Assembly (NCBI GenBank): GCA_019509785.1
Contig: JAEKLQ010000021.1
Coordinates: 80,082-144,081, forward strand
Direction of reading: 5' to 3'
Length of the DNA: 64,000 bases
DNA from: Fibrobacterota bacterium
GTDB taxonomy: Bacteria > Fibrobacterota > Fibrobacteria > UBA11236
Part shown: in pieces, positions 10,315-58,102 of the stretch
Layout: the number at the start of each line of letters is the position of its first letter
Position numbering within the stretch: position 1 is the stretch's first letter
Notes under the pieces: generated by a model
What the model was told of the DNA's origin: nothing
What the model saw: the letters and a program-made list of their open reading frames with translations, nothing else
The model's database searches: none
Translations under genes and position numbers: made by a program

Positions 10315-11337
<1,023 letters not shown>

Positions 11338-12681: not shown

Positions 12682-14889
12682 TCAGCGCGGGTTCCAGACG
12701 AAGATCGAGTTGCGCATGCCGCCTTGCGTCTGCACGCTGATCAGATAGCGACCGCGGCCCAAGGCCCGGCCGTTCGCATCGCGGCCGTCCCATGTCCATC
12801 GCCCCATTTCCCGAGCCAGGCGGCCGGGACGGTATTCGAATACCACGCGCCCTTGCAGATCGAAGATGCGGATGACCCCCACGTGGGCGGGATGCTTCCA
12901 ATCCAGATACAGGAAGCCCCCGCGGATGGAGAGATCGAAGCGCGGATTCGTATTCTCCTCTTCCGCCATGCGCGACAGCTTTGTGGTGATGACGTTGTCC
13001 TGGCTCGCGGCCTGCGGATGGGCCGCGAGGAAGGCGGTGTATTGGCTAAGCACCTCATACTCGATGGACAAAGAAGTTATCGCTTGCTGATTGGCGTTCC
13101 CGGTCCCCTGTTGCAAGCTCAATTGCCCAATCTTCTCGCGGGCCCATAGCTTCGGCACCGCCCAGGCCATCGCGTCCTCCGCGCCGAAATCGACGGCATG
13201 CGCGAAAGAGACCGGCTGCCCTTGCTTATAGCCCTTTACCGTAATGGTATGCGGCCCGGTTCCGGAAAATTTGCCGCTCAAGCGGTAAGGCAGGCCCCGG
13301 TATAAGCGCGCGGAGGTCGGGTAGAGGACGTCGGAAACCTCCAGGCCCCCGAAATCCACCGTCAGGTTGTCGAGTTGAGGCGCTTCCAACCGGCTCCAGG
13401 CCGCTTCCACAAGGGGGGCCACGGAATCGCCCGAGACCAGGGGGGTAGCGAAGCCGTTACCCACCTTGGCGCATTCCTCCAGGAAATAACGGTTGAGATT
13501 GTCGCCCGCCCCGAAGGTGAATATGGTGGGCTTGGAGGGATGCTGGGAAATGGCCTGCAGGACGGCCTCTTCATTGGTGATGAACCCGTCGGTGAGGAAG
13601 ACATAGTACCGCTGCTTGTCGGAATGGGTCGGCACCGCGAGGGTCTTATTCACGGCGTCCAGGAGCTGGGTGCTGCCGCCCGCGGTAAGCCCCCGCAGGA
13701 AATTCCCCGCGATCGCCTGGTTGGCCGCGGTGGCCGGGACCGGCGTCTCCGATCCGAAGGCATAGGTCACGCCGTCGTTGAAAGCCAGCAAGTCGATGTT
13801 ATCGTCAGCGGTGAGGCGCGACAGGATGTTAAGAACGATCTCCTTTTCCCGCGCTAAGGGCCAGCCATCCTGCGAGCCGGAGATATCCACCAGAATGACC
13901 AATTCCATGGGTCCTCTTTGGCCCGCGAAGGCGGCGGTGTCGGGATACAGGTTGAGCATGAAATACCCCTGGCCTTTCGCATCCGCGGAAACCGCCAGGG
14001 AGAAATCCGAAGCCGTCCGGGCGCGCTTGAGGCGCAGTACGTAATCCCGGTTCGGGTAGGTGGCAGCCGTCTGCAACATCACGGAGCGCGTATAAGCCAA
14101 GGAGGGATTATCCGAAATGGACAACACCCCCCGATCCTGCAAGGTCATGCGGGTATCGGCCAGGGTCCCGACGGTTATGGCATGGGACGGGGAGTAGATG
14201 CCGGCGAGGTCCAAGCCCGATTCTACGAGCACGTTGAACTGGAACTCCGGCCCCGATCGATCCTCGGGGGGATTCCAGGGCCCGCTCCCGGCTCCCGCCC
14301 CCGTGCCGTAGCGCGGCCCGATGCGGGTCGGGAACGCCAATTCCAATTCCCCATCCACGTATTTCAGGGGCATGGACAGCTTTATCTCGACCAAAGCCGT
14401 GTCGTTCGGCCCCAAGGTGGCGATGCTCTGTTGGAAGATGTTCGGCTTATCCTGTATCAATAAGGCGGCCTGCCCGCCCTGGTTCTTGATGGAATCGTAA
14501 ATCCCCTGCGCCTTCCCCTTCTCCATGATGGTCGCGACGTAGACCGAGTCCTTGTACTGGTACTTCATCCCGTGTACGGCTCCCTGATCGGGAAGCGGGA
14601 ACAGGTAGACGGTTTCCGTCTTGGCCCGGAAAGGATTCACGAAGCGCTGGGTGACCACCACCTGGGCGATGGCGTCGGTGATGACCACGTTGACGCGGGT
14701 GAAAGACGGGGAGACCGCGACTTGTTGCTTGGTGTCTGGATCGATCATCCCGACCATGGGACCATGCAGGGAGTCGAGGGGGATCTGGCCCAGGGCCGTG
14801 CCGACCGCGGCCGAAACGACGAAGATAAGGATGAGCATGCGGATGGCGGCGCGGCGGATCATGCGGGCTCCCGGTCGGGGTTTACGCAT
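12682..14889 (-). CDS. Secreted VIT (vault inter-alpha-trypsin) + von Willebrand factor A domain protein with FlgD-Ig/T9SS-like C-terminal sorting domain
   Basis: Signal peptide. VIT-like N-terminal region. vWA MIDAS-like block VILVDISGSQDG...LTDGFITN. C-terminal ~75 aa (VIRIFDLQGRVVFEY...WTWDGRDANGRALGRGRYLISVQ) matches the por-secretion-tail / FlgD-Ig-like pattern. Confidence 0.8.
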   Translation of the reverse strand: MRKPRPGARMIRRAAIRMLILIFVVSAAVGTALGQIPLDSLHGPMVGMIDPDTKQQVAVSPSFTRVNVVITDAIAQVVVTQRFVNPFRAKTETVYLFPLPDQGAVHGMKYQYKDSVYVATIMEKGKAQGIYDSIKNQGGQAALLIQDKPNIFQQSIATLGPNDTALVEIKLSMPLKYVDGELELAFPTRIGPRYGTGAGAGSGPWNPPEDRSGPEFQFNVLVESGLDLAGIYSPSHAITVGTLADTRMTLQDRGVLSISDNPSLAYTRSVMLQTAATYPNRDYVLRLKRARTASDFSLAVSADAKGQGYFMLNLYPDTAAFAGQRGPMELVILVDISGSQDGWPLAREKEIVLNILSRLTADDNIDLLAFNDGVTYAFGSETPVPATAANQAIAGNFLRGLTAGGSTQLLDAVNKTLAVPTHSDKQRYYVFLTDGFITNEEAVLQAISQHPSKPTIFTFGAGDNLNRYFLEECAKVGNGFATPLVSGDSVAPLVEAAWSRLEAPQLDNLTVDFGGLEVSDVLYPTSARLYRGLPYRLSGKFSGTGPHTITVKGYKQGQPVSFAHAVDFGAEDAMAWAVPKLWAREKIGQLSLQQGTGNANQQAITSLSIEYEVLSQYTAFLAAHPQAASQDNVITTKLSRMAEEENTNPRFDLSIRGGFLYLDWKHPAHVGVIRIFDLQGRVVFEYRPGRLAREMGRWTWDGRDANGRALGRGRYLISVQTQGGMRNSIFVWNPR

Positions 14890-18227: not shown

Positions 18228-18398
18228 GGGGTTTCCGGTCGGTTGGGAGTCAAGACGGTCGTTTCAACAGGGAAATATAGTATGGTGGTCGGGCGCTGGC
18301 GCGAATTTGGCGGCGACGGGGGCGCGATCCGAATGAAGAATTGGCACGCCTACGCCCTCCAATGGATGGCGGGGTTTCCCGCCCTCCAGAAGGGGCGC

Positions 18399-20345: not shown

Positions 20346-21005
20346 TCATTCCACGATGCGGTAACCGGACTTCACTGCCGCCTTGGGCAAGGCGTCGAAA
20401 TGCCACCATTCCAAGGGGAGTTGGATGAATCCGGCTTTCTCCATGATGCGCCGCAAGAGCTTGCGGTCGGCGACCTGGACCGGAGTCAGGGCGCCGGACT
20501 TCAGGAAGGCGGATTCCAAGCGCGGTTGGGCCAGGTCGGAGAAATCATCGAATGGGCTTCCCATGTCCATGGCCTTCCCGGAAGCGTCGAGCACGCCCAA
20601 ATCGACCGCGAACCCGTAGTTGTGCATCGATCCCGTGGCGGGGTTGGCCACGTATTTCTCGCGGGGGGTCCCTTTGACTTTGTCCCAGAGTCGGTATTGG
20701 ACCGAGCGGGGCCGTAGCGCATCGTAGACGACCAATTTCGCGCCCGGCCGTTCCGCCGCGAGCAAGCGAGCGGCGGAATCCAGTTTCGCGGCCGCGATCC
20801 GATGCAGGAAAGGGATGCGGAAATCGCCGTACAGATCCGCTGCGAGGAAATTGTCCGCGGAAGCGTACTTGAGATCGATGGCCAACGCCGGGTTCGCGCT
20901 GATGTCCACGAATTCGGCGGAGGCTTGCACCTGCCGCAAGGATTCGCCCGGAGTGGCGGCGAAGGCCGCGCGCAAGAGCAGAAAAATCGGGAAGAGGGCG
21001 CGCAT
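20346..21005 (-). CDS. D-alanyl-D-alanine dipeptidase, VanX/DdpX family (peptidase M15D), secreted
   Basis: Motifs SMHNYGFAVDL and LEWWHFD are typical of VanX-type zinc dipeptidases. N-terminal signal peptide. Confidence 0.8.
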   Translation of the reverse strand: MRALFPIFLLLRAAFAATPGESLRQVQASAEFVDISANPALAIDLKYASADNFLAADLYGDFRIPFLHRIAAAKLDSAARLLAAERPGAKLVVYDALRPRSVQYRLWDKVKGTPREKYVANPATGSMHNYGFAVDLGVLDASGKAMDMGSPFDDFSDLAQPRLESAFLKSGALTPVQVADRKLLRRIMEKAGFIQLPLEWWHFDALPKAAVKSGYRIVE

Positions 21006-21059
21006 GCGGTTGATCAGGGAAAAGCGTAGTCGAAAAAATGCGCGCGGCCGGTCATTGAA

Positions 21060-23129
21060 TCAGCGACCACTGACCAATATCTGCCGGGTTTGGACCAGGC
21101 GATCCGTTTTCAACCGCAATAGGCGCAATCCGCTTCCCCCTAGGTTTCCCAGGACCACCTGGTTGGGCCCGGCGGGAAGGAAGGCATCCAACAAGGTCGC
21201 GATTAAACTGCCATGGATGTCGGATAACTCGAGACGGACGCGGGAAGGCCGATCGAGGCGGAATTCCACCTTGTCGCCGGATCGCAGGGGACTGGACGGG
21301 GCCAAGCCGTGGCCAACGGAACGGGGCTTGCCGACGGCGACCGTCGCCCGCATTTCGGAAATGGATCGCTGCCAAACCCCGCTGGTCCCGACCCCTGCGA
21401 AGAGCGTATCGCCAGAGGCCGCCAGGGAATAGATCTCCGACTTGGGGAGGTTGGACTCCACCTCGGTCCAAGAAACCCCGTTGTCCACGGAGAGGTAAAT
21501 GAACCCGGTGCTGGTTGCCATGAACAGGGAGGAACCGTTGGAAGCGAATACATCGAGACTCGTCTCACTGGAAGCGTACCTGAGGATTTCCCAAGTCGAG
21601 CCACCGTCCTGGGAACGGCGTACGACTTCATCTTTCAGCCCCGCGAACAAGGCGCCGCCCTGGGCTAAGAGCTTTTCGAGGCCGGCGTCGGGGTCCCTCC
21701 GAAGCGACCATGTGCGGCCCGAATCGGCGGAACGCAAAATGCCGGATTCGGAGCTTGCGAACATCTGACCGTTGAACTGGGCAAAACCTCCGATGCCGCC
21801 GTTGTAAATGACGCTATCCTTATCGGAGAACGCCAGGCTGGACCAAGAAGCTCCTGAATCGAGCGAGCGAAGGGGGTTCGAGGATGCGGCCATGAAGTAA
21901 TTGCCGATGGAGGCGAAGCTTTCGATTTCGGAACCCGGGGTAAGTCCGGCGGACGAATCCCAGTTTGCCCCCGCATCGGTCGAATGGAAAATGGGGCCTT
22001 CCCAGGATCCGGCCACGAGATGCCGCCCCAGTATTCCCAAGGCGCCGATATTAGTGTGTTTCAATCCATGGATGCCCTGCGTCCATGTCCGCTGGCTCCG
22101 GGAATACCGGTACACGCCGCCGTTGTAGGTTCCCGCGAACAAGTCGTCGCCCCGGACCAGCAGGGCGTGGGCCGAAGCGTTTATCAGACCGCGGTTCGAC
22201 TGGACCCAGGAATCGCCATTGTCCCCGCTCCGGAAAATCCCGGCCGTGGCCGTGCCCGCCAACAGGCTGGATCCGCTCACCGTCATCGCCAGGACCACGG
22301 TGTCGGTCAATCCCGAGATGGTCCGGGTCCAGGTTTTGCCGGTGTCCGCCGATCGGAAGATACCGGAGGAACCGGATGCGAAAAGGTCCGGTCCCCGAGC
22401 CAACAACGCGGTCAACCGATCGTCCTTATGGATCCATTTCCAAGTGCTTCCGCTGTCCTCGGAACTCAGGACTCCCCCATAGGTCCCGGCAAGCACGTAT
22501 TTCCCCATGATCGCGAGCGAAATGATATCGGTGTCGAGGGGAATCCCGGTCTTGAACTGGATCCAGGAATTACCGCTATCGGATGAGCGGAAAACGCCGC
22601 TGTGCTCGGTTCCGGCGAAGACATAGGCCGGACTGGCCGCCAGGCAGGATATATCGGTCGGGATTCCAGCGGCGCGGACCCAGGATCCGCCGTTGTTGGC
22701 GGTACGATTCAAGCCGGCTCCGCCGGTGACCGCGAAAACATAGTCGCCATAGGCGAGGATCTGCTCGACTTCGTAAGAGAACAAGCCCTGGCCGGCGTCT
22801 TTCCAAGTATTGCCGTTGTCGAACGAATGGGCCATCGTGTAGCTGTTATTGGCGAACCAAATCGAGCCTTTGACGCCGATACTGGAAATCTCCAGGGAAC
22901 TCATTCCGTTGTTGGCCGCCACCCAAGAGCCGCCTCCGTCATAGGAGCGGAAGAGGCCGGTCCCCTTGGTGCCCGCAAACACCGTATCGCCCTTGGCGCA
23001 GAGGGCCGTAATCGGCCTTCCGCCACCCGTCGGCCCATCGATGGAAATCCATTGGGCGCGCAAGGCCGTGGCCAAGCAAAGGCCGGCAAGCCCCATCCTG
23101 GATGCAAATCCCGTTCCCCGGCGCATGGC
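21060..23129 (-). CDS. BNR/Asp-box repeat beta-propeller protein (sortilin/Ycf48-like) with FlgD-Ig/T9SS-like C-terminal sorting domain
   Basis: At least 11 Asp-box motifs (S-x-D-x-G-x-[TS]-W: SYDGGGSW, SSDSGNSW, SADTGKTW, STDAGANW...). Signal peptide. C-terminal sorting-domain-like tail. Start set at MRRGTGFASRMGLAGLCLA. Confidence 0.8.
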   Translation of the reverse strand, partial: AMRRGTGFASRMGLAGLCLATALRAQWISIDGPTGGGRPITALCAKGDTVFAGTKGTGLFRSYDGGGSWVAANNGMSSLEISSIGVKGSIWFANNSYTMAHSFDNGNTWKDAGQGLFSYEVEQILAYGDYVFAVTGGAGLNRTANNGGSWVRAAGIPTDISCLAASPAYVFAGTEHSGVFRSSDSGNSWIQFKTGIPLDTDIISLAIMGKYVLAGTYGGVLSSEDSGSTWKWIHKDDRLTALLARGPDLFASGSSGIFRSADTGKTWTRTISGLTDTVVLAMTVSGSSLLAGTATAGIFRSGDNGDSWVQSNRGLINASAHALLVRGDDLFAGTYNGGVYRYSRSQRTWTQGIHGLKHTNIGALGILGRHLVAGSWEGPIFHSTDAGANWDSSAGLTPGSEIESFASIGNYFMAASSNPLRSLDSGASWSSLAFSDKDSVIYNGGIGGFAQFNGQMFASSESGILRSADSGRTWSLRRDPDAGLEKLLAQGGALFAGLKDEVVRRSQDGGSTWEILRYASSETSLDVFASNGSSLFMATSTGFIYLSVDNGVSWTEVESNLPKSEIYSLAASGDTLFAGVGTSGVWQRSISEMRATVAVGKPRSVGHGLAPSSPLRSGDKVEFRLDRPSRVRLELSDIHGSLIATLLDAFLPAGPNQVVLGNLGGSGLRLLRLKTDRLVQTRQILVSGR

Positions 23130-23263
23130 ACCTCGAAAGATAGTTCTCCTGCGTAACAGAAAGCACAGGATCGGATGCAATCCGGCAATCGTGAGCTATT
23201 TTCTTGTTCGCACGAGGTTCCTCGCACGACGCTCGGAGCCAGTGAAGAATAAGGCGATCCCGG

Positions 23264-25285
23264 ATGCGAATAAACCGCAAAGCCCACCTGATTCTCCCGG
23301 CCCTTTTCTTGGCATCCATGCCGGTACTCGGAGGCCAGGATGCCTGGGAATGGCAATTCCCCCGGCCCCAGGGCAACGATCTCAATTCGGTTTTCGTGAC
23401 CGCTCCCGGCAAGGCCGTGGCGGTAGGCAGCGGCGGCGCCATGTTGATCACCTCCGACAAGGGTCAGCATTGGAACCTGCTTCCCTCGCTTGGCCCGGGA
23501 AGCTTGTGGGACGTGCACTTTCCCGTGCCCGATACGGGGTACGCCGTGGGCGATTCGGGATGGATCCTGAAGTCTACCGACGGAGGAAGCCACTGGACGC
23601 CACTGCTTTCGCATAGGATCGAGCATCTGTACTCGGTTCATTTCGCGAATGCCAGGACGGGATATGCCGCCGGCGATGCCGGGGTCATCATCAAGACCAG
23701 CGACGGGGGCCTATCCTGGAAAATGATGGACGGGGGACGCGCCAACTTCCTTTGGAAGGTGTTCGCTTTGGACTCCGCCAACGTTTGGGCCACCGGCAAC
23801 GAAGGCGGGAAGGGGATGATCTTGCACTCGGCGGATGGCGGAGCCACGTGGGCGGCGCAATTGCAGGATACCCTGCTTACCGTGCGCGACATCCATTTCC
23901 GCGACCGCGCATCCGGTTATGCCGTGGGCGATTTCAACGGCTACCTCAAAACTTCCGATGGCGGCGCCCATTGGACCTTGGATGCATCGATATGCCCGTG
24001 GGGGTGCCTTGGAATTGATTTCCCGGAAGCGGATACCGGTTATGCGATGAGATCCGATTCCCCGGTGGTGCACAAAACCGTGGATGGCGGCGTCAATTGG
24101 TCGACCGATACCTTGCCGGGAGCGCGGAACGCCATTCTGCAAGCAATCGGATTCGGAAGCTCCGGCGACGGGTATATCGTGGGCGTTCGCGGGCAAATCT
24201 TGACGGCATCAAGCGCATCCCCGCGAACGTGGCAAAGCACGGAAACCTTGCCGGGCTTGCGGGATCTCGTCATCGCCGCCGCGGGCGTCGCCTACGCCGT
24301 CGGAGATGAGGGTACCATCGTGAAGAGTTCCGATTCCGGGCGAACCTGGCTCAGGCAGGAAAGCGGCACCGATTCGGGACTCAAGGCGATCAGTATGCTG
24401 GACAAGAATACGGGCTATGCCGTGGGGCGGCAAGGGACCCTGCTCCGGACCCGGGACGGGGACCATTGGACGTCTTTGCCGGGACCCGCATTCAATTGGG
24501 AAGGCGTGGCTTTCCCGCAAGCGGATACCGGCTGGGTGGTCGGTTGGTATTTACGCAGCGCCGAGGTGGACGGGGTGATCCGGAAATCCGACGATGGCGG
24601 CCTGACCTGGCAAGACCAAGGCCCGCCTCTTTCGGTGCGGATCGAGTGCGTTCGTTTCCTCAATACGTCGACCGGGTATGCCGGGGGCGAGGGCGGCACC
24701 ATCCTGAAGACCAAGAACGGCGGAGCCTCATGGGTTACCCAGAAGGCCGGATCCGGCCGGATTACGGACCTCTATTTCTTCAATGCCGACACGGGATTCG
24801 CCGTCGAAGAAGCCTCGGCGGTACACGGGACCGTGAATGGAGGCGCGACCTGGACCTCCAAGTACAAAGGTCCTGCCTACCCGACGAACATCGCCTTCGC
24901 GGACCGCAAGATCGGGTTCGCAGGCGGTTACAACGGCTTCATCAAAACCACGGATGGCGGGGAGACCTGGTCCCCCTTTACCCAAGTGTACCCGACATCG
25001 GTCTCCGGTTTGGATTTCCGGGGAATGGCCTGGGGATTAGCGGTGACAAGCCTCGGCGGAATATTGAGGTACATACCGGATCCGGATCTTCCCGTCACGA
25101 AACTTTCCGGGTCCGGACGGAAGGGGTATGGCAGCAGAGGCCGCTCTCCTTTCGGCCCGGGGGAATCCCGCGTCGTGCAGGCAGTCGATCCCCGCGGCAA
25201 GAGGGTCATTCTGAAAATCGGAGGTGCGCCTGCGCATATGACGACCCCAGCCTTCCCGATCCCCCTTCCGGCTGAAAGCCCTTGA
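23264..25285 (+). CDS. BNR/Asp-box repeat beta-propeller protein (Ycf48-like), secreted
   Basis: Signal peptide. 12 Asp-box motifs (TSDKGQHW, STDGGSHW, TSDGGLSW, SADGGATW...). Divergently oriented to the previous gene. Confidence 0.8.
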   Translation: MRINRKAHLILPALFLASMPVLGGQDAWEWQFPRPQGNDLNSVFVTAPGKAVAVGSGGAMLITSDKGQHWNLLPSLGPGSLWDVHFPVPDTGYAVGDSGWILKSTDGGSHWTPLLSHRIEHLYSVHFANARTGYAAGDAGVIIKTSDGGLSWKMMDGGRANFLWKVFALDSANVWATGNEGGKGMILHSADGGATWAAQLQDTLLTVRDIHFRDRASGYAVGDFNGYLKTSDGGAHWTLDASICPWGCLGIDFPEADTGYAMRSDSPVVHKTVDGGVNWSTDTLPGARNAILQAIGFGSSGDGYIVGVRGQILTASSASPRTWQSTETLPGLRDLVIAAAGVAYAVGDEGTIVKSSDSGRTWLRQESGTDSGLKAISMLDKNTGYAVGRQGTLLRTRDGDHWTSLPGPAFNWEGVAFPQADTGWVVGWYLRSAEVDGVIRKSDDGGLTWQDQGPPLSVRIECVRFLNTSTGYAGGEGGTILKTKNGGASWVTQKAGSGRITDLYFFNADTGFAVEEASAVHGTVNGGATWTSKYKGPAYPTNIAFADRKIGFAGGYNGFIKTTDGGETWSPFTQVYPTSVSGLDFRGMAWGLAVTSLGGILRYIPDPDLPVTKLSGSGRKGYGSRGRSPFGPGESRVVQAVDPRGKRVILKIGGAPAHMTTPAFPIPLPAESP

Positions 25286-25354
25286 AGATGGCCCTGCGGG
25301 AAACGCAGGTTCGCCGGATTCGTAAAGCCGCGTTGAACGTTCGGGCGGAACCGG

Positions 25355-27598
25355 CTATGCGCCGGACTTCCGTACCATCACCGGAATGAATTTCGAAGTC
25401 GGCGTATTGCTGCGCTCGGCCACGCTGTCCAAAGGCACCAGCACGTTCGTCTCGGGAAAATAGGCGGCCGCGCAGCCTATCGGTATCTCGTAAGGCTTGG
25501 CCTTGAAACCGGGCGCCATCCGCACCGTCCCGCGGGAATCGGTCCCCACCAGGTCCACCTTCTCCCCTTCCGCCAGGCCGCGCGCGCGCATGTCCGCGGC
25601 ATTCAGGAAGACCACCCGCCGTTCCCCGAACACGCCGCGATAGCGGTCATCCAGGCCGTAAAGAGTGGTGTTGTATTGATCGTGGGAGCGCAAGGTCATG
25701 AGCCGCAACTCGCCTTCGCGGAGCACGATCGGATCCAGGGCCGCCGCGACGAAGCGGGCCTTGCCCCCGGCGTTCTCCCATTCCCGCCGGCCGGCGCTGT
25801 TCCCCAGGTAGAATCCGCCCGGTTGCTTGATCTTGGCGTTGAATTCTTCGAAGCCCGGCACCACTTCCGCGATGCGCTCGCGAATGCGCCCATAATCGCC
25901 GGCCAGGCTTTCCCAAGGCACCTTGGAGGCGGGCAAGGCGGCCCGCGCCAGACCGGCCACGATGGCAACTTCCGAAAGCAGATGAGGCGAGGCGGGCCGC
26001 TTGCGGCCGGTGGAGGCGTGCACCATGCTCATGGAATCCTCCACCGTAACCTGCTGGTTACGTCCTTCGCGCAGATCGATCTCGGATCTCCCCAGGCAAG
26101 GCAGGATATAGGCGTGGCGGCCGGTAACGAGATGGCTGCGATTGAGCTTGGTGCTGACATGAACGGTCAACTCGCAGCCGCGCAGAGCCTGTTCGGTTCG
26201 ATCCCCGTCCGGCGTGGCCGCGGCGAAGTTGCCCCCCATGGCGATGAAGGCCTTGATCTTGCCTTCGGCCATTCCCATGATGGCCTCGACCACGTCGGCG
26301 CCGTGGCCGCGCGGGGGAGCGAATCCGAAGGCTTTCTCCAGGCTGTCCAGGAATTGGGCCGAGGGTTTTTCGGTGATGCCCATGGTGCGATCGCCCTGGA
26401 CGTTGCTATGGCCGCGCACGGGACATGCTCCCGCCCCTTCCTTCCCGAGGTTGCCGCGCAGCATCAGCAGATTCACCAGCATCTGGATGGTGGCTACCGC
26501 CCTCTTATTCTGGGTCAGGCCCATGGCCCAACAAGCGATCACCCGCCCGGAACGGCAATAGAGATCGGCTACCTCTTCGATTTCCACGCGGGGCACGCCG
26601 CTTTCCCGTTCGATGGCTTCCCAGCCCTCGCCCCGGATGTCCGCGGCGAACGTTTCGAATCCCTCGGTATGCGCGCGGATGAAGGCATGATCCAGAACCT
26701 GGCCGGACCGGGCATCTTCGGCCGCGAGCACGGCCTTGCAAAGGCCCTTGAGCAGGGCCAAATCGCCGCCTACCAAGGGCGTCAGGTAATGGGTAGCGAG
26801 ATCGGTGGGAGTGTTGGCCAGCATCGCCATCGCATCCTTGGGATGGATGAAGCGCTGCAATCCGGGCTCGCGCAAGGGATTCACCGCCACGATGGGCGCG
26901 CCGCGGCGGCGCGCCTGTTGCAAGGTGCTCATCATGCGGGGATGGTTGGTGCCCGGGTTCTGGCCGATGATGAAGAGGCAATCCGCGGCGTCGAAATCGG
27001 CCAGGGTCACCGTGCCTTTACCGGTGCCGATGGAATCGCTGAGCGCCACCCCGCTGCTCTCATGGCACATGTTCGAGCAATCGGGCAGATTGTTGGTCCC
27101 GAATTCCCGCGCGAAAAGCTGGTAGAGAAAGGCCGCCTCATTGCTGGTCCGTCCGGAAGTATAGAAGGCCGCCCGATCGGGATGGCCCAAGCCCCGTAGG
27201 ATCCTGCCGATACGGGCGAAAGCGTCTTCCCAGGCGATGGGCCGGTAGCGATCGGAAGCGGCATCGTATTCCATGGGATGGGTCAGCCGGCCTTGCTGCT
27301 CCAGCCAGAAGTCCGATTGCGCGGCCAATTCCTTCACCGTATGCTTCGCGAAGAATTCCGGATCAACACGTTTCGTAGTGGTTTCCGCGGCCACCGCCTT
27401 GAGGCCGTTCTCGCAGAAGTCCAGGCGCGAATGCTCCCCTTCGGGCCAGGCGCAGCCGGGACAATCGAATCCGCCGGGTTGGTTGACCCTGAGCAGGGCG
27501 GCCGTGCCGGAAACCATGGACCGTTCCCGGAGCATGGCCTTGCCGCTGGCGATGAGGGCGCCCAGGCCGCCCGCCACCGGACCCTTGGCGCTTTTCAT
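25355..27598 (-). CDS. FdhF/YdeP-family molybdopterin oxidoreductase (formate-dehydrogenase-alpha-like)
   Basis: N-terminal Cys cluster (CPGCAWPEGEHSRLDFCENG), molybdopterin oxidoreductase blocks. Start at MKSAKGPVAGG in an ATGA overlap with fdhD. Confidence 0.8.
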   Translation of the reverse strand: MKSAKGPVAGGLGALIASGKAMLRERSMVSGTAALLRVNQPGGFDCPGCAWPEGEHSRLDFCENGLKAVAAETTTKRVDPEFFAKHTVKELAAQSDFWLEQQGRLTHPMEYDAASDRYRPIAWEDAFARIGRILRGLGHPDRAAFYTSGRTSNEAAFLYQLFAREFGTNNLPDCSNMCHESSGVALSDSIGTGKGTVTLADFDAADCLFIIGQNPGTNHPRMMSTLQQARRRGAPIVAVNPLREPGLQRFIHPKDAMAMLANTPTDLATHYLTPLVGGDLALLKGLCKAVLAAEDARSGQVLDHAFIRAHTEGFETFAADIRGEGWEAIERESGVPRVEIEEVADLYCRSGRVIACWAMGLTQNKRAVATIQMLVNLLMLRGNLGKEGAGACPVRGHSNVQGDRTMGITEKPSAQFLDSLEKAFGFAPPRGHGADVVEAIMGMAEGKIKAFIAMGGNFAAATPDGDRTEQALRGCELTVHVSTKLNRSHLVTGRHAYILPCLGRSEIDLREGRNQQVTVEDSMSMVHASTGRKRPASPHLLSEVAIVAGLARAALPASKVPWESLAGDYGRIRERIAEVVPGFEEFNAKIKQPGGFYLGNSAGRREWENAGGKARFVAAALDPIVLREGELRLMTLRSHDQYNTTLYGLDDRYRGVFGERRVVFLNAADMRARGLAEGEKVDLVGTDSRGTVRMAPGFKAKPYEIPIGCAAAYFPETNVLVPLDSVAERSNTPTSKFIPVMVRKSGA

Positions 27599-28482
27599 GC
27601 TTCTCCCCGGGTGATCGATGCCGTCAAATCCATAGCCGGGGCATGCGCATGCCCCCGGTCTTCCCAAAAGACCCGCTCGGGATGGCTGTAAACGGTCGCC
27701 TTCCCGCCGCGGCAGAAGGCCAGCAAGGTAATCCCGGCTTCGCGGCATAACTTCACCGCCAAGGTAGAGGGCGCGGAGACCGCCAACAAGAAAGGGATGT
27801 TCGCCTTGGCGGCCTTTGACACGATCTCGTAGGAGACCCTTCCGCTGATGAAAAGCAGACCGGCTTGCTTAAGCGCGCGTTCCCTCAGCAAATGCCCGAT
27901 CGCCTTGTCCACCGCGTTGTGCCGGCCCACGTCCTCGCGCAGGACCAACAGTCCGCCATCGGCCGCGAAGAGGGCGGCCGCATGGCTGCCGCCGGTGCGG
28001 CTGAATAATTCCTGGGCCGAGCGCATGCGGCCTTCCAGAACGGGTATCAGGGCAAGATCCAAACGCGCTTCCGCCCGGTCGCCGCGCAGGGCCTGGACTT
28101 CGAGATCCTCTGCCGACACCTTACCGCATACGCCGCAAGATGCGTTGGAGATCAAGCGGCGCTCGGCCGGTTTCCGATCCTCGCGTGCCGCAGGCTTCCG
28201 CATAATCTCGATGGCATCGGAACATCCTTCGCCGGCGGCCGGGATTTCCTTCGCCGTCTCGACATCATCCCAGGAAACCAATTCGCCTTCCCCATGCAAA
28301 AGCCCGATAGCCAAATCCGTATCCTGCCCCGGGGTCCGCATGGTCATGGAAAAAGCCGCGCCATCGACGAGGATTTGCAACGCGGCTTCCTCGGCCAACG
28401 CGTCATCGACGGTCCGGAAGCGGCCCTCTTGGGCATGCAAAGCCTGCACGGTTCCGGTTCCTGAAGCTGCGACGATATCCAT
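27595..28482 (-). CDS. fdhD: Formate dehydrogenase accessory sulfurtransferase FdhD
   Basis: FdhD blocks NASCGVCGK and VGRHNAVDKAIG. Translationally coupled to the downstream oxidoreductase. Confidence 0.8.
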   Translation of the reverse strand: MDIVAASGTGTVQALHAQEGRFRTVDDALAEEAALQILVDGAAFSMTMRTPGQDTDLAIGLLHGEGELVSWDDVETAKEIPAAGEGCSDAIEIMRKPAAREDRKPAERRLISNASCGVCGKVSAEDLEVQALRGDRAEARLDLALIPVLEGRMRSAQELFSRTGGSHAAALFAADGGLLVLREDVGRHNAVDKAIGHLLRERALKQAGLLFISGRVSYEIVSKAAKANIPFLLAVSAPSTLAVKLCREAGITLLAFCRGGKATVYSHPERVFWEDRGHAHAPAMDLTASITRGEA

Positions 28483-33987: not shown

Positions 33988-34644
33988 ATGCAGAACGATT
34001 CCTTCGAAAAATCCCAAAGGTACCTGAACCAATTGCTGGGCTACCTGGAAGGATTGAATAGCGAGATGGAAAGCGACTCCTCCGAGGCCGCCTCCACCGG
34101 GCCCTTGGGGCTGCCGGCCCGTATCGCGGCCATCCTCACCGATAGCGGTTGGCTGGAAGGCCTGCATCTCAAGGCCCAGGGTTGCCTGTCGTCGGACTTG
34201 TTGGAGTTCGTCCGCGTCGTAGGCTACGCATTCGAAATCGAGGCTTCGCCCTTGGGCGCGTTCAAGCTCCCCTTCATCGATAACGAACTGGTCATCCAGC
34301 GCAAGACGTTGAACGCCTTCATGGAAAAGGCGTGGTTGGCCTACCATGCGGCCCTTCTCTCCGCCTACGCCCTCAAGCCCCTCCGTTTCGAACGCGTCCC
34401 TTCCGTGGACGGGCTGGAAGAAGTGGTCCGCATCCGCGAAGCCCCCTCCGAGACGGACGAGGGCCATTCGCCCGCATTGCGCGCGGAAGCCCTGCATAGC
34501 CTCAACAACGCCCTGGCCGGGATCACCAGCTACGTGAGCCTGATCCTGGAAGAGCGGATGGATGATGAGGATTTGCAGGAGAAATTAGGCTTGGTGCTGG
34601 AGGCGGCCAAGCGGGCGGCTACCCTCGTGCCGGCTTGGGAGTAG
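33988..34644 (+). CDS. Hypothetical protein with C-terminal HisKA-like dimerisation/phosphoacceptor domain and no ATPase domain
   Basis: C-terminal EALHSLNNALAGITSYVSLILEE resembles the H-box (h-E-[LI]-[RN]-N-P-L) of histidine kinases. No HATPase_c follows. Confidence 0.4.
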   Translation: MQNDSFEKSQRYLNQLLGYLEGLNSEMESDSSEAASTGPLGLPARIAAILTDSGWLEGLHLKAQGCLSSDLLEFVRVVGYAFEIEASPLGAFKLPFIDNELVIQRKTLNAFMEKAWLAYHAALLSAYALKPLRFERVPSVDGLEEVVRIREAPSETDEGHSPALRAEALHSLNNALAGITSYVSLILEERMDDEDLQEKLGLVLEAAKRAATLVPAWE

Positions 34645-42091: not shown

Positions 42092-43596
42092 CTTTCCCCC
42101 GCTACGATGGCCCTCTTGCGCGTCCGTCCGTCGCCGAAAGTCAGGCAGAGCACGTAGGCTCCGCGCGGCAACGCGCGGCCGCCGGCGCCGCGGCCGTCCC
42201 ACGCATGCACGCGCCTGCCCGCTCCCCCCCGGCCGATCTCCCTTACGATGTCCCCTTCCAGGCTGAAGGCGCGTAAGACGTAGTCCGCGCCTGCCGGAGC
42301 CAGCACTTCCACCTCCAACGGCGCCTCGGGAAAAGCCGTGCGCCCGGACAAGTTCCAGCCGGCCCCCGCTGGCAGGTCGTTCCCAGCCTCCGGTGCGCCC
42401 GGCTTGATGGGGCCCCAGGACAGGGTATCCACCGCGATTCCCGCCAGGCGGAGGATCAGGGTATCACCGGTGTTACGTAAGGCCCGCCAGGGCTCCGGCC
42501 GCACGACATTAGCCTTAATGGGGCCGAAACGGGCCCGGAAGGCCGCCGTATCCGAAGTAAGGATGATGCGCTCGCCCGGATCCAGGACTCCCGCCTTTGT
42601 CTCCAGCGCCATGGCATCCACCGTGGCCAGGGACAAGGCGATGCGACGGCCCGTCCCTCCCGACACGGAGGTGACGTTCCGGATTTCGACCCACTCCGGA
42701 GCGCCCCCCTGCCCGACCGCTTGGAAGGCCCCGAAGGCTAACGGGCCTCCCCCGGGCTCGCAGGCGACGGCCATGACATTGTCGCCGGGGTTTTCATCCG
42801 GGCTTAAGCTGGCCGACACCCGTCCCCGGGTTCCCGCCGGGATCCTGAATTCCAAGGTGGCGGGATATTCGCCCGCGGAGTCGAGGGAGACGGAATCAAG
42901 CGTCGCCTCGGGAATACCGTCCCAATCGGAGTCGAGGCGCAACGCCACCCATGACCGCGGAGGGGGCCCCGATCCGCGGCTTTCCACGGTAACGCGCACG
43001 CTACTGCCGGCGGCTTCGATCCCCGCGAGGGCGAGATCCCGGCCGGCCGGGGCCGTACTCCGGCTGTTGCGCGAGCCAGGCGTTGCCGAGTCGCCGCCCG
43101 CCTTTCCCGCGAGGGAAGGCAGGAAAGCCGTATAGCCGGCGGCCGCATCCCAAGTGTTTTCCCAACTCGTCCCGGGACGCGAGGCCGGCGCCGTCACGTG
43201 GAAGTTACCCCCGGCCCACGACACGGCCGCATCGAGGGGGCGGCCGTTTACCAGGGTCATGCCGGCCCACCCGCGGGCGCACGCGATCCCGGCCCGCGCA
43301 TAAGCGGTAGAATCCCGGCAAATCAGGAAGCAGTCGGAAGGTCCCAATAAAAGCGGCCCCAGGAGGAAGCTCTGCCCGTCCACGGTAATCGTGACGCCGT
43401 CCAGACGGGTGCTGTCGTTCCCGGGGTGGCCTAGCTCGAGGAATTCACCTTGGGCATCGAGCCAGGCGGCCGGATCGGCGAGGATTTCGGATAGGATGAG
43501 GGCCGGGGTCTCGCTGGCGGCGATCGGGGCAAGTGAAGTAAAAGCGAGCAGCGCGGGCGGGAGCAGAATGCCGTAATGGGACCATCGCGTAAGCAT
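42088..43596 (-). CDS. Secreted protein with two lamin-tail-domain (LTD)-like segments and FlgD-Ig/T9SS-like C-terminal sorting domain
   Basis: LTD-like signatures LILSEILADPA...GEFLEL and EWVEIRNVT. Signal peptide. C-terminal YVLRAFSLEGDIVREI...HAWDGRGAGGRALPRGAYVLCL sorting-domain pattern. Confidence 0.65.
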   Translation of the reverse strand: MLTRWSHYGILLPPALLAFTSLAPIAASETPALILSEILADPAAWLDAQGEFLELGHPGNDSTRLDGVTITVDGQSFLLGPLLLGPSDCFLICRDSTAYARAGIACARGWAGMTLVNGRPLDAAVSWAGGNFHVTAPASRPGTSWENTWDAAAGYTAFLPSLAGKAGGDSATPGSRNSRSTAPAGRDLALAGIEAAGSSVRVTVESRGSGPPPRSWVALRLDSDWDGIPEATLDSVSLDSAGEYPATLEFRIPAGTRGRVSASLSPDENPGDNVMAVACEPGGGPLAFGAFQAVGQGGAPEWVEIRNVTSVSGGTGRRIALSLATVDAMALETKAGVLDPGERIILTSDTAAFRARFGPIKANVVRPEPWRALRNTGDTLILRLAGIAVDTLSWGPIKPGAPEAGNDLPAGAGWNLSGRTAFPEAPLEVEVLAPAGADYVLRAFSLEGDIVREIGRGGAGRRVHAWDGRGAGGRALPRGAYVLCLTFGDGRTRKRAIVAGER

Positions 43597-43656
43597 GCTG
43601 CGGAAAATAAACCCGCGATTCGGGGGCGGTTGAGCGAGGCATCACACGAATGATGG

Positions 43657-43790
43657 GCGCGCCATTGTAGCGCCAAAGGGAGCGCCAATGGAGCGCCAAA
43701 AAAGTGGGAGCCTACTGAAAAAAAGATTTCCGAGGTGGCGGAAGGTCGCGCCATTGGAGCGCCGGATGACGCGCCAATGGCGCGCCACAG
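43657..43790. repeat. Array of four ~22-bp units GCGCCAWTGGAGCGCCAA (two tandem pairs separated by an A-rich 45-bp spacer), immediately upstream of the LTD operon
   Basis: gcgccattgtagcgccaaa / gcgccaatggagcgccaaa / gcgccattggagcgccgg / gcgccaatggcgcgccac read directly. GCGCCA occurs 8 times in 134 bp. Core CCAATGG/CCATTGG are reverse complements of each other. Confidence 0.6.
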
Positions 43791-43841
43791 ACGGCAGAAC
43801 GACGGGACCGGTGGAGTTTAGGTAGGAATTTACGTTGGGAT

Positions 43842-44381
43842 TTAGTGGCCCGGGAATTGGACCAGGGAGAAGACTTCGTGACCCATGTCGCGCAGCTTGC
43901 GGCTGCCGCCCAAATCGGGCAAATCCACGATCACGCCGCAGGCGGCCACGACGGCGCCGATGCGCCGCAAAAGCTCGATGGATGCCTTCATGGTGCCGCC
44001 GGTCGCCATCAGGTCGTCCATCACGATCACGCGTTGCCCGCGAACGAGCGCGTCCTTATGGATCTCCACGCAGTCGCGGCCGTATTCGAGCTCGTATTCG
44101 TAACGCTCCACTTCGGCGGGGAGCTTGCCTTGCTTCCGGACCGGGATGAATCCCGTGCCCAGGCGATCGGCCACCGCGGACGCGATGATGAATCCCCGGC
44201 TCTCGATCCCGATCACCGCATCGACGCGAAGGTCGCGGTACTTATCCTCGAAGGCATCCGTGCTGAGGCGGAATCCCTCGGCATCGTTCCACAGGGTCGT
44301 GATGTCGCGGAAGACGATGCCGGGCTTGGGGAAATCGGGGATGGCGCGGATCTTGGAGCGGATGCGCTCGATGCGCTCCAT
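43842..44381 (-). CDS. apt: Adenine phosphoribosyltransferase
   Basis: IPDFPKPGIVFRDIT and PRPP-binding VIVMDDLMATGGT motifs. Start placed at MERIERIRSKIRAIPDF by alignment to known Apt N-termini (recall). Confidence 0.85.
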   Translation of the reverse strand: MERIERIRSKIRAIPDFPKPGIVFRDITTLWNDAEGFRLSTDAFEDKYRDLRVDAVIGIESRGFIIASAVADRLGTGFIPVRKQGKLPAEVERYEYELEYGRDCVEIHKDALVRGQRVIVMDDLMATGGTMKASIELLRRIGAVVAACGVIVDLPDLGGSRKLRDMGHEVFSLVQFPGH

Positions 44382-44435
44382 CTCCGTCCCAGCCCCGCTC
44401 CGGGCGGCTTTGCTGGGGCCTCCGGCCGCCAGCAT

Positions 44436-44768
44436 CTAGTCCTTGCGGGTGACGCGCGGCGCCAGCTTGGGCTTGAGGTACATCGCGCGATCCTTCGCGG
44501 TGAGCGTCCCCATCGCCTTCTTGAGAAGGGACAAGAGCTCCTTGCGCAGCGGGTAATCCGCATCGAAGTGGATCATCTGCCGGTTCGCGTCCTTCTTCAC
44601 CGTGATGACGCCGCCGCGTAGCAGATTCTTCAACTGGGTCTGCACGCCGAAGAGGGGCAGCTTCAGGTTGATCGTCAGCTCGCGCGGATACGTTTCTTTA
44701 TAGACGCTCAGGTACAGCAGGATTTTGGCGCGCGTGGCCGATCCGATCAAGGAGCGCAGAGCTTTCAT
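44436..44768 (-). CDS. Small hypothetical protein, possibly winged-helix DNA-binding
   Basis: 110-aa ORF. AKILLYLSVYKETYPRELTINLKLPLFGVQTQLKNLLRGGVITVKKDANRQ resembles a wHTH. Weak assignment. Confidence 0.4.
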   Translation of the reverse strand: MKALRSLIGSATRAKILLYLSVYKETYPRELTINLKLPLFGVQTQLKNLLRGGVITVKKDANRQMIHFDADYPLRKELLSLLKKAMGTLTAKDRAMYLKPKLAPRVTRKD

Positions 44769-56945: not shown

Positions 56946-58102
56946 TCTCCGCCTCGCGGCGAGGCATCGGCCGCGGGCAATGCGCCCCCGGCCGCTTCAT
57001 CAGCGGCCGCATCCGCAGCCGCTTCGGCCGCGGTCGCGATCCCGGCGGAACGGCCCCGCACAAAGTAGAATCCGCCCCCCAGCATGACAACCAGGCCGAC
57101 CACGGAAGGAAGGAACGCCAATGCCGCAGCGGTGGCGTTGCCATCCGCCGCCGCCAACACGCCCGGCAGGGTGTACAGATAGGTGCCGATGCTTTGCGGA
57201 ATGCCCCAGCCCCCCACGTTGAGCGGAATAACGCCCGCCAGCGCGATCACGGGGATGAAGCAGAAAAAGAAAACCGGCGAGATGCGCGCGTCCAACGCGA
57301 TCCCGGAGAACCAATGGACGTCGATGCGCAGCACCTGCACCAAACACGAGACGGCGATGATCCACATCATTTCCCGCCAGCGGGCCTGGTAGGCTTGCAA
57401 GATGCCCTGCATGCGGCCATGGGCCTCGGCCAGCCAGCGCATGCCCGCCCAATGGATGAGCGCGTTCACCAGGGCCGCGATGCGGCGGGACAGCAAAAGG
57501 ATCAGGACCGCGACGAAGATCCCGAACACCAGCCCGACCGCGTAGAGCAGATGGCGGAAGACGCCTTGGTCCAAGGTATGCCGCCAGAGCGCGAAGGCCA
57601 CCGCCACCAGGGACAACAGCGAAAGCGAGAAAAACCCGATCAGCCGATCGAGGAAGGTGGCCGCCACGGCCTTGCCCCAGCCGTCCGACCCCTGCTTCGC
57701 TTCGTATACCCGCAGGGCATCGCCGCCCACCGTCCCCGGCAGGAAGTTGTTCAGGAACATGCCCGAGTAGTAGGCCCGGAAACATGCGCGATACCCCATG
57801 GGAATCCCCTGCAAACGCAAGAGCAGGAACCATTGGTAGGCGCCCGCCGCCACCGAGATGAAGAAGAGGACCGCGCTTAGAAGTACCCAGCTCGGCCGCG
57901 CGCCGGCAAGGGTTTGCAAGATACGGCCCTGTCCGTTCTTGTTGATCACCCACCACAGGATGGCGAGGGCGGCGATGAGGCGCAGCCAAATCCAGGCCCG
58001 CTTCCGGCGCCGTCGCCGGTCGCCCGACTTTCCCAGGTCGCCCGACCGTCTGCGGTCTCCCGACCTTCCCAGGTCGCCCGACCGTCTGCGGTCGCCGCTC
58101 AC
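56942..58102 (-). CDS. Flippase-like integral membrane protein (UPF0104 / lysyl-phosphatidylglycerol-synthase TM-region family) with repeat-containing basic N-terminus
   Basis: 8 predicted TM helices, conserved Gly/Pro pattern of UPF0104. N-terminal RRSGDLGRSGDRRRSGDLGKSGDRRRRRKR. ATGA overlap with the downstream GT2. Confidence 0.65.
   Translation of the reverse strand: MSGDRRRSGDLGRSGDRRRSGDLGKSGDRRRRRKRAWIWLRLIAALAILWWVINKNGQGRILQTLAGARPSWVLLSAVLFFISVAAGAYQWFLLLRLQGIPMGYRACFRAYYSGMFLNNFLPGTVGGDALRVYEAKQGSDGWGKAVAATFLDRLIGFFSLSLLSLVAVAFALWRHTLDQGVFRHLLYAVGLVFGIFVAVLILLLSRRIAALVNALIHWAGMRWLAEAHGRMQGILQAYQARWREMMWIIAVSCLVQVLRIDVHWFSGIALDARISPVFFFCFIPVIALAGVIPLNVGGWGIPQSIGTYLYTLPGVLAAADGNATAAALAFLPSVVGLVVMLGGGFYFVRGRSAGIATAAEAAADAAADEAAGGALPAADASPRGGE
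58039..58101. repeat. Perfect 27-bp direct repeat (tcccaggtcgcccgaccgtctgcggtc x2, 36-bp period), in frame, encoding the duplicated RRSGDLG[RK]SGDR peptide
   Basis: Read directly from the sequence at 58039-58065 and 58075-58101. Confidence 0.6.

Follow-up and report, generated by a model that had tools for sequence, protein, structure and literature searches.

We analyzed a 64,000-nucleotide stretch of a Fibrobacterota genome (the window), in which a 245-bp gap (43597–43841) separates apt, an adenine phosphoribosyltransferase gene, from a gene for a protein with a lamin-tail-like domain (LTD), both on the minus strand. The gap contains an array of eight short phased boxes, and this array is non-random and real. 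The reading that we favor, tentatively and at a confidence somewhat short of even, is that this lineage-specific array offers several docking sites on the DNA, that is, an operator or activator platform, to a putative sequence-specific regulator.

The array is made up of four units of about 23 bp, U1 (43657–43679), U2 (43680–43702), U3 (43746–43768), and U4 (43769–43791), arranged as two tandem pairs that flank a 45-bp spacer with A6 and A7 runs on the plus strand. An initial annotation of this DNA had described four units in two tandem pairs around an A-rich spacer, lying between the 3′ end of apt and the start of the LTD-like gene, and we find this layout at 43655–43787, between the apt stop codon (43842–43844) and the LTD-like start at 43596. 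It had also reported alternating CCATTGG and CCAATGG cores, which is correct for U2 (CCAATGG), U3 (CCATTGG), and U4 (CCAATGG), but the core of U1 is an imperfect CCATTGT. A repeat search finds direct copies of 47 nt in the array (81% identity, 89 bp apart) as well as inverted arms of 40 nt (78% complementarity), and Tandem Repeats Finder reports period-11 arrays at 43659–43699 and 43747–43787 and a period-23 array at 43655–43700.

On the plus strand there are eight GCGCCR hexamers, which start at 43659, 43670, 43682, and 43693 and then at 43748, 43759, 43771, and 43782, and which read TGGCGC in gene orientation. The hexamers are part of boxes of 9–10 bp with the consensus TGGCGCKMC(A), spaced 11/12/11 bp within each four-box cluster, with the two clusters offset by 89 bp. 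In gene orientation (minus strand), the distal cluster (43744–43787, or -191 to -148 relative to the A of the ATG) consists of boxes dA1 (TGGCGCGCCA, 43787–43778), dA2 (TGGCGCGTCA, 43776–43767), dB1 (CGGCGCTCCA, 43764–43755), and dB2 (TGGCGCGACC, 43753–43744). The proximal cluster (43655–43698, minus strand, -102 to -59) consists of pA1 (TGGCGCTCCA, 43698–43689), pA2 (TGGCGCTCCC, 43687–43678), pB1 (TGGCGCTACA, 43675–43666), and pB2 (TGGCGCGCCC, 43664–43655). The spacer between them (43699–43743) is T-rich on the minus strand and is present in the window genome only. Of the 48 cells at positions 1–6 of the window boxes, 47 match TGGCGC, and all eight boxes have C at position 9; positions 7, 8, and 10 and the 1–2-nt spacers vary. 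The polarity of a box is set by positions 4 and 7, and all eight boxes point in the same direction or are symmetric. The initial annotation had deduced sites in both orientations from the alternating center base, a claim that fails here, since CCAWTGG is palindromic and its center base sets no polarity.

Across the 64-kb window, GCGCCAWTGG with at most one mismatch is found 23 times against 23.1 expected, and 8 of the 23 matches, including every exact match, lie in the array. The motif is not enriched window-wide, so nothing in the 64 kb points to a dispersed motif. All six matches of the window to GCGCCR-N4–7-GCGCCR fall within the array (2.2 expected). We define a phased chain as a series of TGGCGC boxes, each with at most one mismatch, at 11- or 12-bp steps; the window has two chains of at least four boxes, both in the array, versus 0.02 per Markov shuffle. 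A third chain, at 18297–18330 on the plus strand upstream of an isocitrate dehydrogenase gene, has three boxes, two of them mismatched, and was set aside as chance level (0.4 expected per shuffle). The initial annotation had held that a motif frequency at random expectation elsewhere would speak against the array as a set of operators. Over the 64 kb, the motif frequency elsewhere is indeed at random expectation.

Downstream of the array lies a conserved core, which we examined by anchoring ten orthologous LTD upstream regions ungapped at the ATG (the window and loci L003, L008, L009, L010, L137, L138, L133, L004, and L005, with LTD identity to the window of 85% to about 47%). For L133, whose row is offset in this comparison because a later ATG was called as the start, the core was read separately. 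The core contains a box outside the array, TGTGATGCCTCGCTCA (43631–43646, minus strand, -50 to -35 from the ATG), with the family pattern GTGA-N6-(T/G)C(A/C)C and with GTGA at -49 to -46, at the same distance from the ATG in the ten orthologues. The TGTGATGCCTCGCTCA box has two mismatches to TGTGA-N6-TCACA and resembles a CRP/FNR-type site, and the L004 copy is a perfect GTGA-N6-TCAC. A -10-like hexamer, TATTTT (43604–43609, minus strand), lies 7 nt before the ATG, and TA(T/C/G)(T/C)TT at -13 to -8, together with GCATG, is common to all ten orthologues. From these features we infer that the GTGA box and the TAYYTT hexamer form the promoter of the LTD operon. With so short a distance between hexamer and ATG, the mRNA would have no leader or almost none. 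Two other first-in-operon genes of the window, with starts at 33988 and 35462 (both plus strand), have TAYCTT 11–12 nt before the ATG and no Shine-Dalgarno-like sequence, which suggests that short or absent leaders may be common in this organism. The geometry of class-II CRP/FNR-type promoters is well established, and the distance from box to hexamer would match it, with the box center near -41.5 if transcription starts at the ATG or one base before it. No CRP/FNR-family gene was seen near the LTD locus. The last TGGCGC begins 19 nt ahead of a conserved GTGATGCC in each of the four lineages that have the array. If the core is the promoter, the boxes lie upstream of it, in DNA that is perhaps not transcribed. 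This location, directly upstream of the conserved core, is where upstream activators and anti-activators act.

A different placement of the promoter would follow if the 11-bp box pairs were themselves sigma-54-type promoters (GG-N10-GC), with the proximal pair driving LTD through a leader of about 70 nt and the upstream boxes serving as enhancers. Each 11-bp pair does read TGGCGC-N5-TGGC, so that the GG/GC spacing is kept and there are four matches on the gene strand. However, every match has three mismatches to TGGCAC-N5-TTGCW, including A-22 and T-14, an eightfold repeated promoter element is unlike the build of a sigma-54 promoter, and no rpoN or enhancer-binding protein gene was seen nearby. 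In addition, the downstream core, including the -10-like hexamer at 7 nt from the ATG, persists in orthologues that lack the array, and it is for this reason that we place the promoter at the core. We regard sigma-54 promoters as a highly improbable explanation of the boxes.

The orthologous loci, five from a metagenome search and the others from exact-protein look-ups, keep the gene order dapA-like, 110-amino-acid protein, apt, LTD, protein of about 290 amino acids, and HD-GYP in every case. The array is found only in the four sampled lineages with an LTD protein at least 80% identical, and it is therefore a lineage-specific addition to a conserved promoter region. Counts of the 23-bp units are 2+2 in the window, 3 in L003 (identical to L131 and L132), 3 in L008, and 2 in L009. 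The window distal cluster is homologous to units 1–2 of L008 and L003, and the proximal cluster has its orthologues in the promoter-proximal boxes of L003, L008, and L009. The arrays of these three lineages run on without a break and lack the 45-bp spacer. At fourfold sites, identity among the four lineages is 70–79%, with 57% of the columns invariant across all four. In the three promoter-proximal 9-mers, however, 25 of 27 box columns are invariant over the four lineages (binomial P = 7e-5 versus fourfold sites), as opposed to 2 of 17 spacer and linker columns (Fisher P = 2.5e-6 versus boxes). From these counts we conclude that the boxes are constrained and the spacers are not. The divergence of spacers between copies also speaks against recent duplication or homogenization, which would copy the spacers too.

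In the mechanism that we propose, the recognition element would be the 9–10-bp box TGGCGC-K-M-C-(A). Boxes are 11 bp apart inside a 23-bp unit, and units are placed head to tail, which yields the 11/12/11 spacing. Two units (-59 to -102) sit directly upstream of the inferred LTD core promoter, with two more 89 bp further up, past the T-rich spacer. Dimers or a higher oligomer would occupy adjacent boxes cooperatively and, bound upstream, would assist or impede RNA polymerase at the class-II-type promoter. In the window genome, a loop could bridge the two clusters. A protein as the reader of the boxes, its action on DNA, and the direction of the regulation are inferred. A reader of sequence is favored over a hairpin because the same core occurs four times in one orientation per cluster, which pairing does not need, because the cores are near-identical between copies while tails and spacers have diverged, and because the array is in fixed register to the promoter core. 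The operator reading of the initial annotation thus survives in part: a protein-binding array fits the conserved boxes, the free spacers, and the position, but its sites do not run in both orientations within the window.

A number of observations weigh against a docking array. The window contains no DNA-binding response regulator or other obvious regulator gene, save an ECF sigma factor gene (2093–2665, about 40 kb from the array) and a gene for a 110-amino-acid protein with a weak ArsR/SmtB-like winged helix (44436–44768, minus strand), located between the dapA-like gene and apt. Response regulator, rpoN, and RAYT genes are absent from the scanned window proteins and from the annotated 10 kb on either side of L131. 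No second box locus occurs in the 64 kb of the window genome or in the 21.5 kb covered for a relative, and the roughly 100 kb of clade sequence examined gave no sign of a regulon. When a genome collection was scanned for TGGCGC-N5–6-TGGCGC-N5–6-TGGCGC, none of the at least 120 matches listed was titled Fibrobacteres or Fibrobacterota; the matches listed were coding repeats of 6 or 12 nt and chance matches in GC-rich taxa, one of them with a TGGMGCKCCA decamer, so that this list carries no information on a regulon. No regulator matching TGGCGC direct-repeat sites was found in the literature searched, and we know of no site that matches the box sequence. The array is also absent from six more distant orthologous promoters, those of L010 (69% LTD identity), L137 (67%), L138 (65%), L133 (56%), L004 (48%), and L005. 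Being confined to orthologues of at least 80% identity, it is not a conserved feature of LTD promoters, so that the conservation which the initial annotation had looked for in orthologous promoters is seen among close lineages and stops there. The distal unit is inverted in L003, L008, and L009; this inversion agrees more with a palindrome or hairpin than with a strict head-to-tail array and so favors the former view, as do the location of the array just past a stop codon and its dynamic copy number among close lineages. Finally, conserved boxes or stems alongside free loops or spacers would be expected of a selected hairpin as much as of a protein-binding array.

The 110-amino-acid winged-helix protein was considered as the reader of the array. 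It scores 20.6 bits to NF033788, below the cutoff, with an E value of 0.3 to Rv0081, and its gene is syntenic with the LTD operon throughout. The protein is 98–100% identical among the array-bearing loci (LTD only 79–85% identical) and 89–91% identical in L010 and L133, which lack the array (LTD 56–69%), with the N-terminal ~57 residues unchanged. Since it is nearly unchanged in loci with and without the array, it was rejected as an array-specific regulator, a result that adds to the points against a docking array. Because its N-terminal half is unchanged whether or not the array is present, the protein tracks the conserved core box, not the array, and it may be a candidate reader of the GTGA-N6-TCAC box or else a non-regulatory housekeeping protein.

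The box consensus in the form TGGMGCKCCA is its own reverse complement, and an array of such nearly palindromic boxes folds into strong hairpins. Readings of the array as a terminator or insulator, or as a REP/REPIN-like repeat or slippage product, have to be weighed for this reason. The first of these holds that the array is a hairpin RNA element in the apt transcript, acting as a terminator, a 3′-end stabilizer, or an insulator between the housekeeping apt operon and the LTD promoter, with the repetition of boxes a by-product of palindrome growth; we judge it rather unlikely. The alternating center W makes neighboring units complementary, so that each pair can fold as a hairpin, and strong sense-strand hairpins are kept in every array-bearing lineage. 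Predicted sense-RNA energies are -33.7 kcal/mol for the window distal cluster (a 15-pair hairpin, z -4.3), -25.9 kcal/mol for the window proximal cluster, -23.9 kcal/mol for L009, -46.2 kcal/mol for L008, and -51.4 kcal/mol for L003 (a 20-pair stem with two G.U pairs, z -7.8). In none of the five arrays is the antisense fold the more stable one, although the sense fold is clearly better only in L003 (-51.4 versus -40.4). The center W bases of paired units are complementary without exception, unit 1 of L003 is a true inverted copy of unit 3 even at non-consensus positions (GTA pairs with TAC), and one outer stem pair is C-G in the window and L008 and A-U in L003 and L009. In all four lineages, the GC-rich stem-loops (-24 to -51 kcal/mol) lie 50–85 nt past the apt stop codon.

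Other features speak against this reading. In the four promoter-proximal hairpins, 93.8% of cells are paired, with two compensatory pairs and 11 of 16 pairs that never vary, but only four sequences were compared and the compensatory pairs are equaled in 185 of 500 shuffles, so covariation does not exceed the control. The energy is unremarkable in a window of 62.5% G+C, ranking about 13th among its 60-nt segments, and was discarded as evidence. No U-tract directly follows the array hairpins, where CAUCAUUCGUG or UGGUGUUCGUG is found instead; a T7 run (43724–43718) occurs only in the spacer of the window genome, after a separate 5-pair hairpin (TTCCG..CGGAA, 43743–43728). That spacer hairpin and its T7 look like a weak intrinsic terminator of the apt operon, as judged from the sequence, although a scan for terminator-like sites gives one site versus 0.5 expected in shuffles, so that the pair is not significant alone. 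The proximal cluster lies between this T7 and the promoter deduced above and is thus perhaps untranscribed. The L010 gap of 89 bp contains no hairpin, and relatives such as this one indicate that no terminator is required at the apt/LTD junction. Rfam yielded no matching family, either at E values up to 1 on 43000–44500 or at the gathering score on the whole window. A hairpin also needs only complementary arms, and four same-orientation boxes per cluster are left unexplained.

A precedent for a repeat-built terminator exists in terGTA of the Caulobacter gene transfer agent (GTA) cluster, which has 150-bp repeats (PMC11150451). Like the array, terGTA is composed of GC-rich direct repeats with inverted repeats and sits between a single gene and the other members of a co-directional cluster, which counts in favor of the hairpin element. 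The array differs in that its units are 23 bp, it has no U-tract, and it lies upstream of a separate conserved promoter core.

The changes in copy number bear on another explanation, namely that the array is a selfish or mutational palindromic repeat without a host role, either like REPs/REPINs (repetitive extragenic palindromes) or miniature inverted-repeat transposable elements, or a product of slippage or template switching. We consider this unlikely. It would accommodate the counts of 2, 3, 3, and 2+2 units in close lineages, the unit inversion, and the 45-bp insertion, as well as the confinement of the array to one shallow clade. The whole array of L003 and that of L008 each form one large imperfect palindrome, like a REP doublet, and some units start with GTAGCG, which may correspond to the GTAG head of E. 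coli REPs. Quasi-palindromes can acquire what looks like compensatory change through template switching, in the absence of selection, and this process could account for the compensatory changes seen here. On the other hand, classical REPs occur about once per 6–10 kb, and the array is a single locus in 64 kb plus the 21.5 kb of the relative, with no IS200/IS605-type (RAYT) transposase in the scanned window proteins or the L131 neighborhood; a low-copy family would still be compatible with such a count. The boxes are far more conserved than fourfold sites and the spacers are freer, which argues against neutrality, and the register to the promoter core is fixed in four lineages.

The array further resembles the REP/BIME/REPIN class in that it consists of GC-rich imperfect palindromes in a gap after a gene, in both orientations, with long hairpins and a variable copy number. 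It is unlike that class in its 11/12-bp box periodicity and its fixed promoter register, beyond the single locus and the lack of a RAYT gene noted above.

Other candidates were rejected. The initial annotation had compared the array to sites for an IHF- or partition-type protein. The IHF consensus WATCAANNNNTTR, with at most one mismatch, is missing from both strands of 43597–43841, and we dismiss an IHF site. A partition centromere is likewise untenable, as no ParA, ParB, ParM, or ParR gene is found in the neighborhood and the split architecture is unique to the window genome. A known comparison is parC of plasmid R1, where two sets of five 11-bp repeats flank a promoter, and the window, although not its relatives, has two sets of ~11-bp repeats around a core of ~45 bp. 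The orthologue arrays are contiguous and without this core, neither parM/parR nor parA/parB is present, and the context is chromosomal and housekeeping. We also set aside an invertible switch. The clusters are inverted repeats around a 51-bp segment, with a tyrosine recombinase gene ~4 kb downstream; L001 and L002, two independent samples, have the same orientation, and the arrays of the orthologues are not split.

The docking array that we favor resembles known multi-site operators. In the OmpR/PhoB family, represented by the pho boxes of PhoB, the fourfold TT(A/T/C)ACA of B. subtilis PhoP, and the two to five repeats at 11-bp spacing of ArcA, four repeats are the core site for two dimers and further repeats extend the site. 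The array is similar in having a conserved core of 6–9 bp plus a few free bases, in a repeat of ~11 bp that lies upstream of or abuts a promoter, and its eight TGGCGC cores at 11/12/11-bp steps agree with the ~10–11-bp direct-repeat periodicity of the family. Streptomyces PhoP is described with 11-nt direct repeats (PMC2275107) and M. tuberculosis PhoP with 7-bp repeats and a 4-bp spacer (PMC4832192). Unlike the sites of this family, the array alternates 11 and 12 bp (a 23-bp unit), its box is nearly palindromic (TGGCGCGCCA), three of the four lineages carry the distal units in inverted orientation, and no response regulator gene was seen in the window. Half-sites of this family share one orientation, for head-to-tail dimers; the window boxes are forward or symmetric in 8 of 8 cases, as set against the inverted distal unit of L003, L008, and L009.

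Lambda OR1–OR3 are tandem palindromic operators, about 23–24 bp from center to center, which bind cooperative dimers. The array units can similarly be written as 19-bp near-palindromes, GGnGCnCCA-W-TGGnGCnCC, 23 bp center to center, and they come in adjacent pairs with the second pair at a distance that permits looping. In contrast to lambda-type operators, positions 4 and 7 mostly repeat directly rather than symmetrically within units, there is no adjacent repressor gene, and the array lies upstream of the promoter without overlapping it. Overall, with a core repeat phased at ~11 bp ahead of a promoter, the architecture belongs to a known type of cis-regulatory array, and it is the self-complementary box that is unusual.

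Three of the promoters that lack the array, one of them from a more distant locus, carry repeats of their own. L010 (1928–1952) and L137 (about 895–925) have a perfect 11-nt direct repeat, CCGTGCGCCCG, present twice at 14-bp spacing and abutting the GTGATC box; this repeat could represent another upstream site or a forerunner of the GCGCC-type boxes. Between apt and the LTD core of L004 (1944–2007) there is an unrelated three-copy direct repeat, CGGCCG-N3-GGCCAW, with a 22/23-bp period, in a region that also carries 8-bp GCGGCCGC palindromes able to pair. As a 22/23-bp repeat at the same place, it is a possible parallel to the array.

The genes around the gap are all on the minus strand. Upstream of it are a DHDPS-family (dapA-like) gene (45845–44796), the 110-amino-acid gene (44768–44436), and apt (44435–43842), which matches the NCBIfam equivalog NF002634 with 252 bits versus a cutoff of 170 and is the last gene of the run accB, T2SSE, accC, dapA-like, 110-amino-acid winged-helix gene, and apt. 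Downstream, the LTD-like gene (43596–42088) opens a conserved run of LTD, a signal-peptide protein of ~284 amino acids (42091–41237), and HD-GYP (41170–39977). The LTD-like protein has 502 amino acids, with a signal peptide, a lamin-tail-like domain, and a FlgD-Ig-like C-terminus. It scores 25.7 bits to the Pfam lamin-tail domain, under the threshold of 34.3; many of its homologues carry PF00932, and the NCBI entry for an identical protein is a hypothetical protein from a Fibrobacteres metagenome-assembled genome. The 284-amino-acid protein, a putative outer-membrane protein in the initial annotation, has a signal peptide and no family match. A FlgD-Ig-like domain ends two signal-peptide proteins of the window, the LTD-like protein and a VIT-VWA protein (12682–14889, minus strand), and may serve both of them for C-terminal sorting or anchoring. 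The wider neighborhood includes accA/B/C, dapA-like, apt, LTD, HD-GYP, and a XerC/D-like gene.

Elsewhere in the window, a tandem repeat with an 18/36-bp period (4.8 and 2.4 copies) is located at 58010–58096, at the 5′ end of an LPG_synthase_TM gene, and a 249-bp repeat (2.1 copies, 10705–11232) lies within an OmpA-family gene. A purine-rich 24-bp repeat (two copies, 2861–2907) follows the ECF sigma gene. A gene filter based on third-position G+C (GC3) leaves only short open reading frames from about 21000 to 27600, where no Rfam family matched, and a 797-amino-acid minus-strand open reading frame ends near 27748, adjoining an FdhD gene.

A broader proposal, which we offer as improbable, would combine the docking array with the hairpin. 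The locus would then be a recently born two-level cis-module, with a cooperative operator on the DNA and an insulating hairpin in the apt transcript, grown by tandem and inverted duplication of one near-palindromic 10-bp box. Successive stages of its growth would be visible in the four lineages (2, 3, 3, and 2+2 units), and the L004 repeat would be an independent second origin.

The array is of local interest and not a new kind of system, and it would be unremarkable should it turn out to be no more than a hairpin or slippage product. The literature search brought up no mapped promoters or regulators of the soil and peat lineage of Fibrobacteres, and we know of none. If the boxes are docking sites, they would provide a handle on gene regulation in this uncultured lineage, consisting of a defined box, TGGCGCKMC, and a target operon (a secreted LTD protein, a signal-peptide protein, and an HD-GYP cyclic di-GMP phosphodiesterase), together with a probable leaderless promoter that has a CRP/FNR-like box near -42. 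The copy-number series over four close lineages is a small natural experiment in the growth of a binding-site array.

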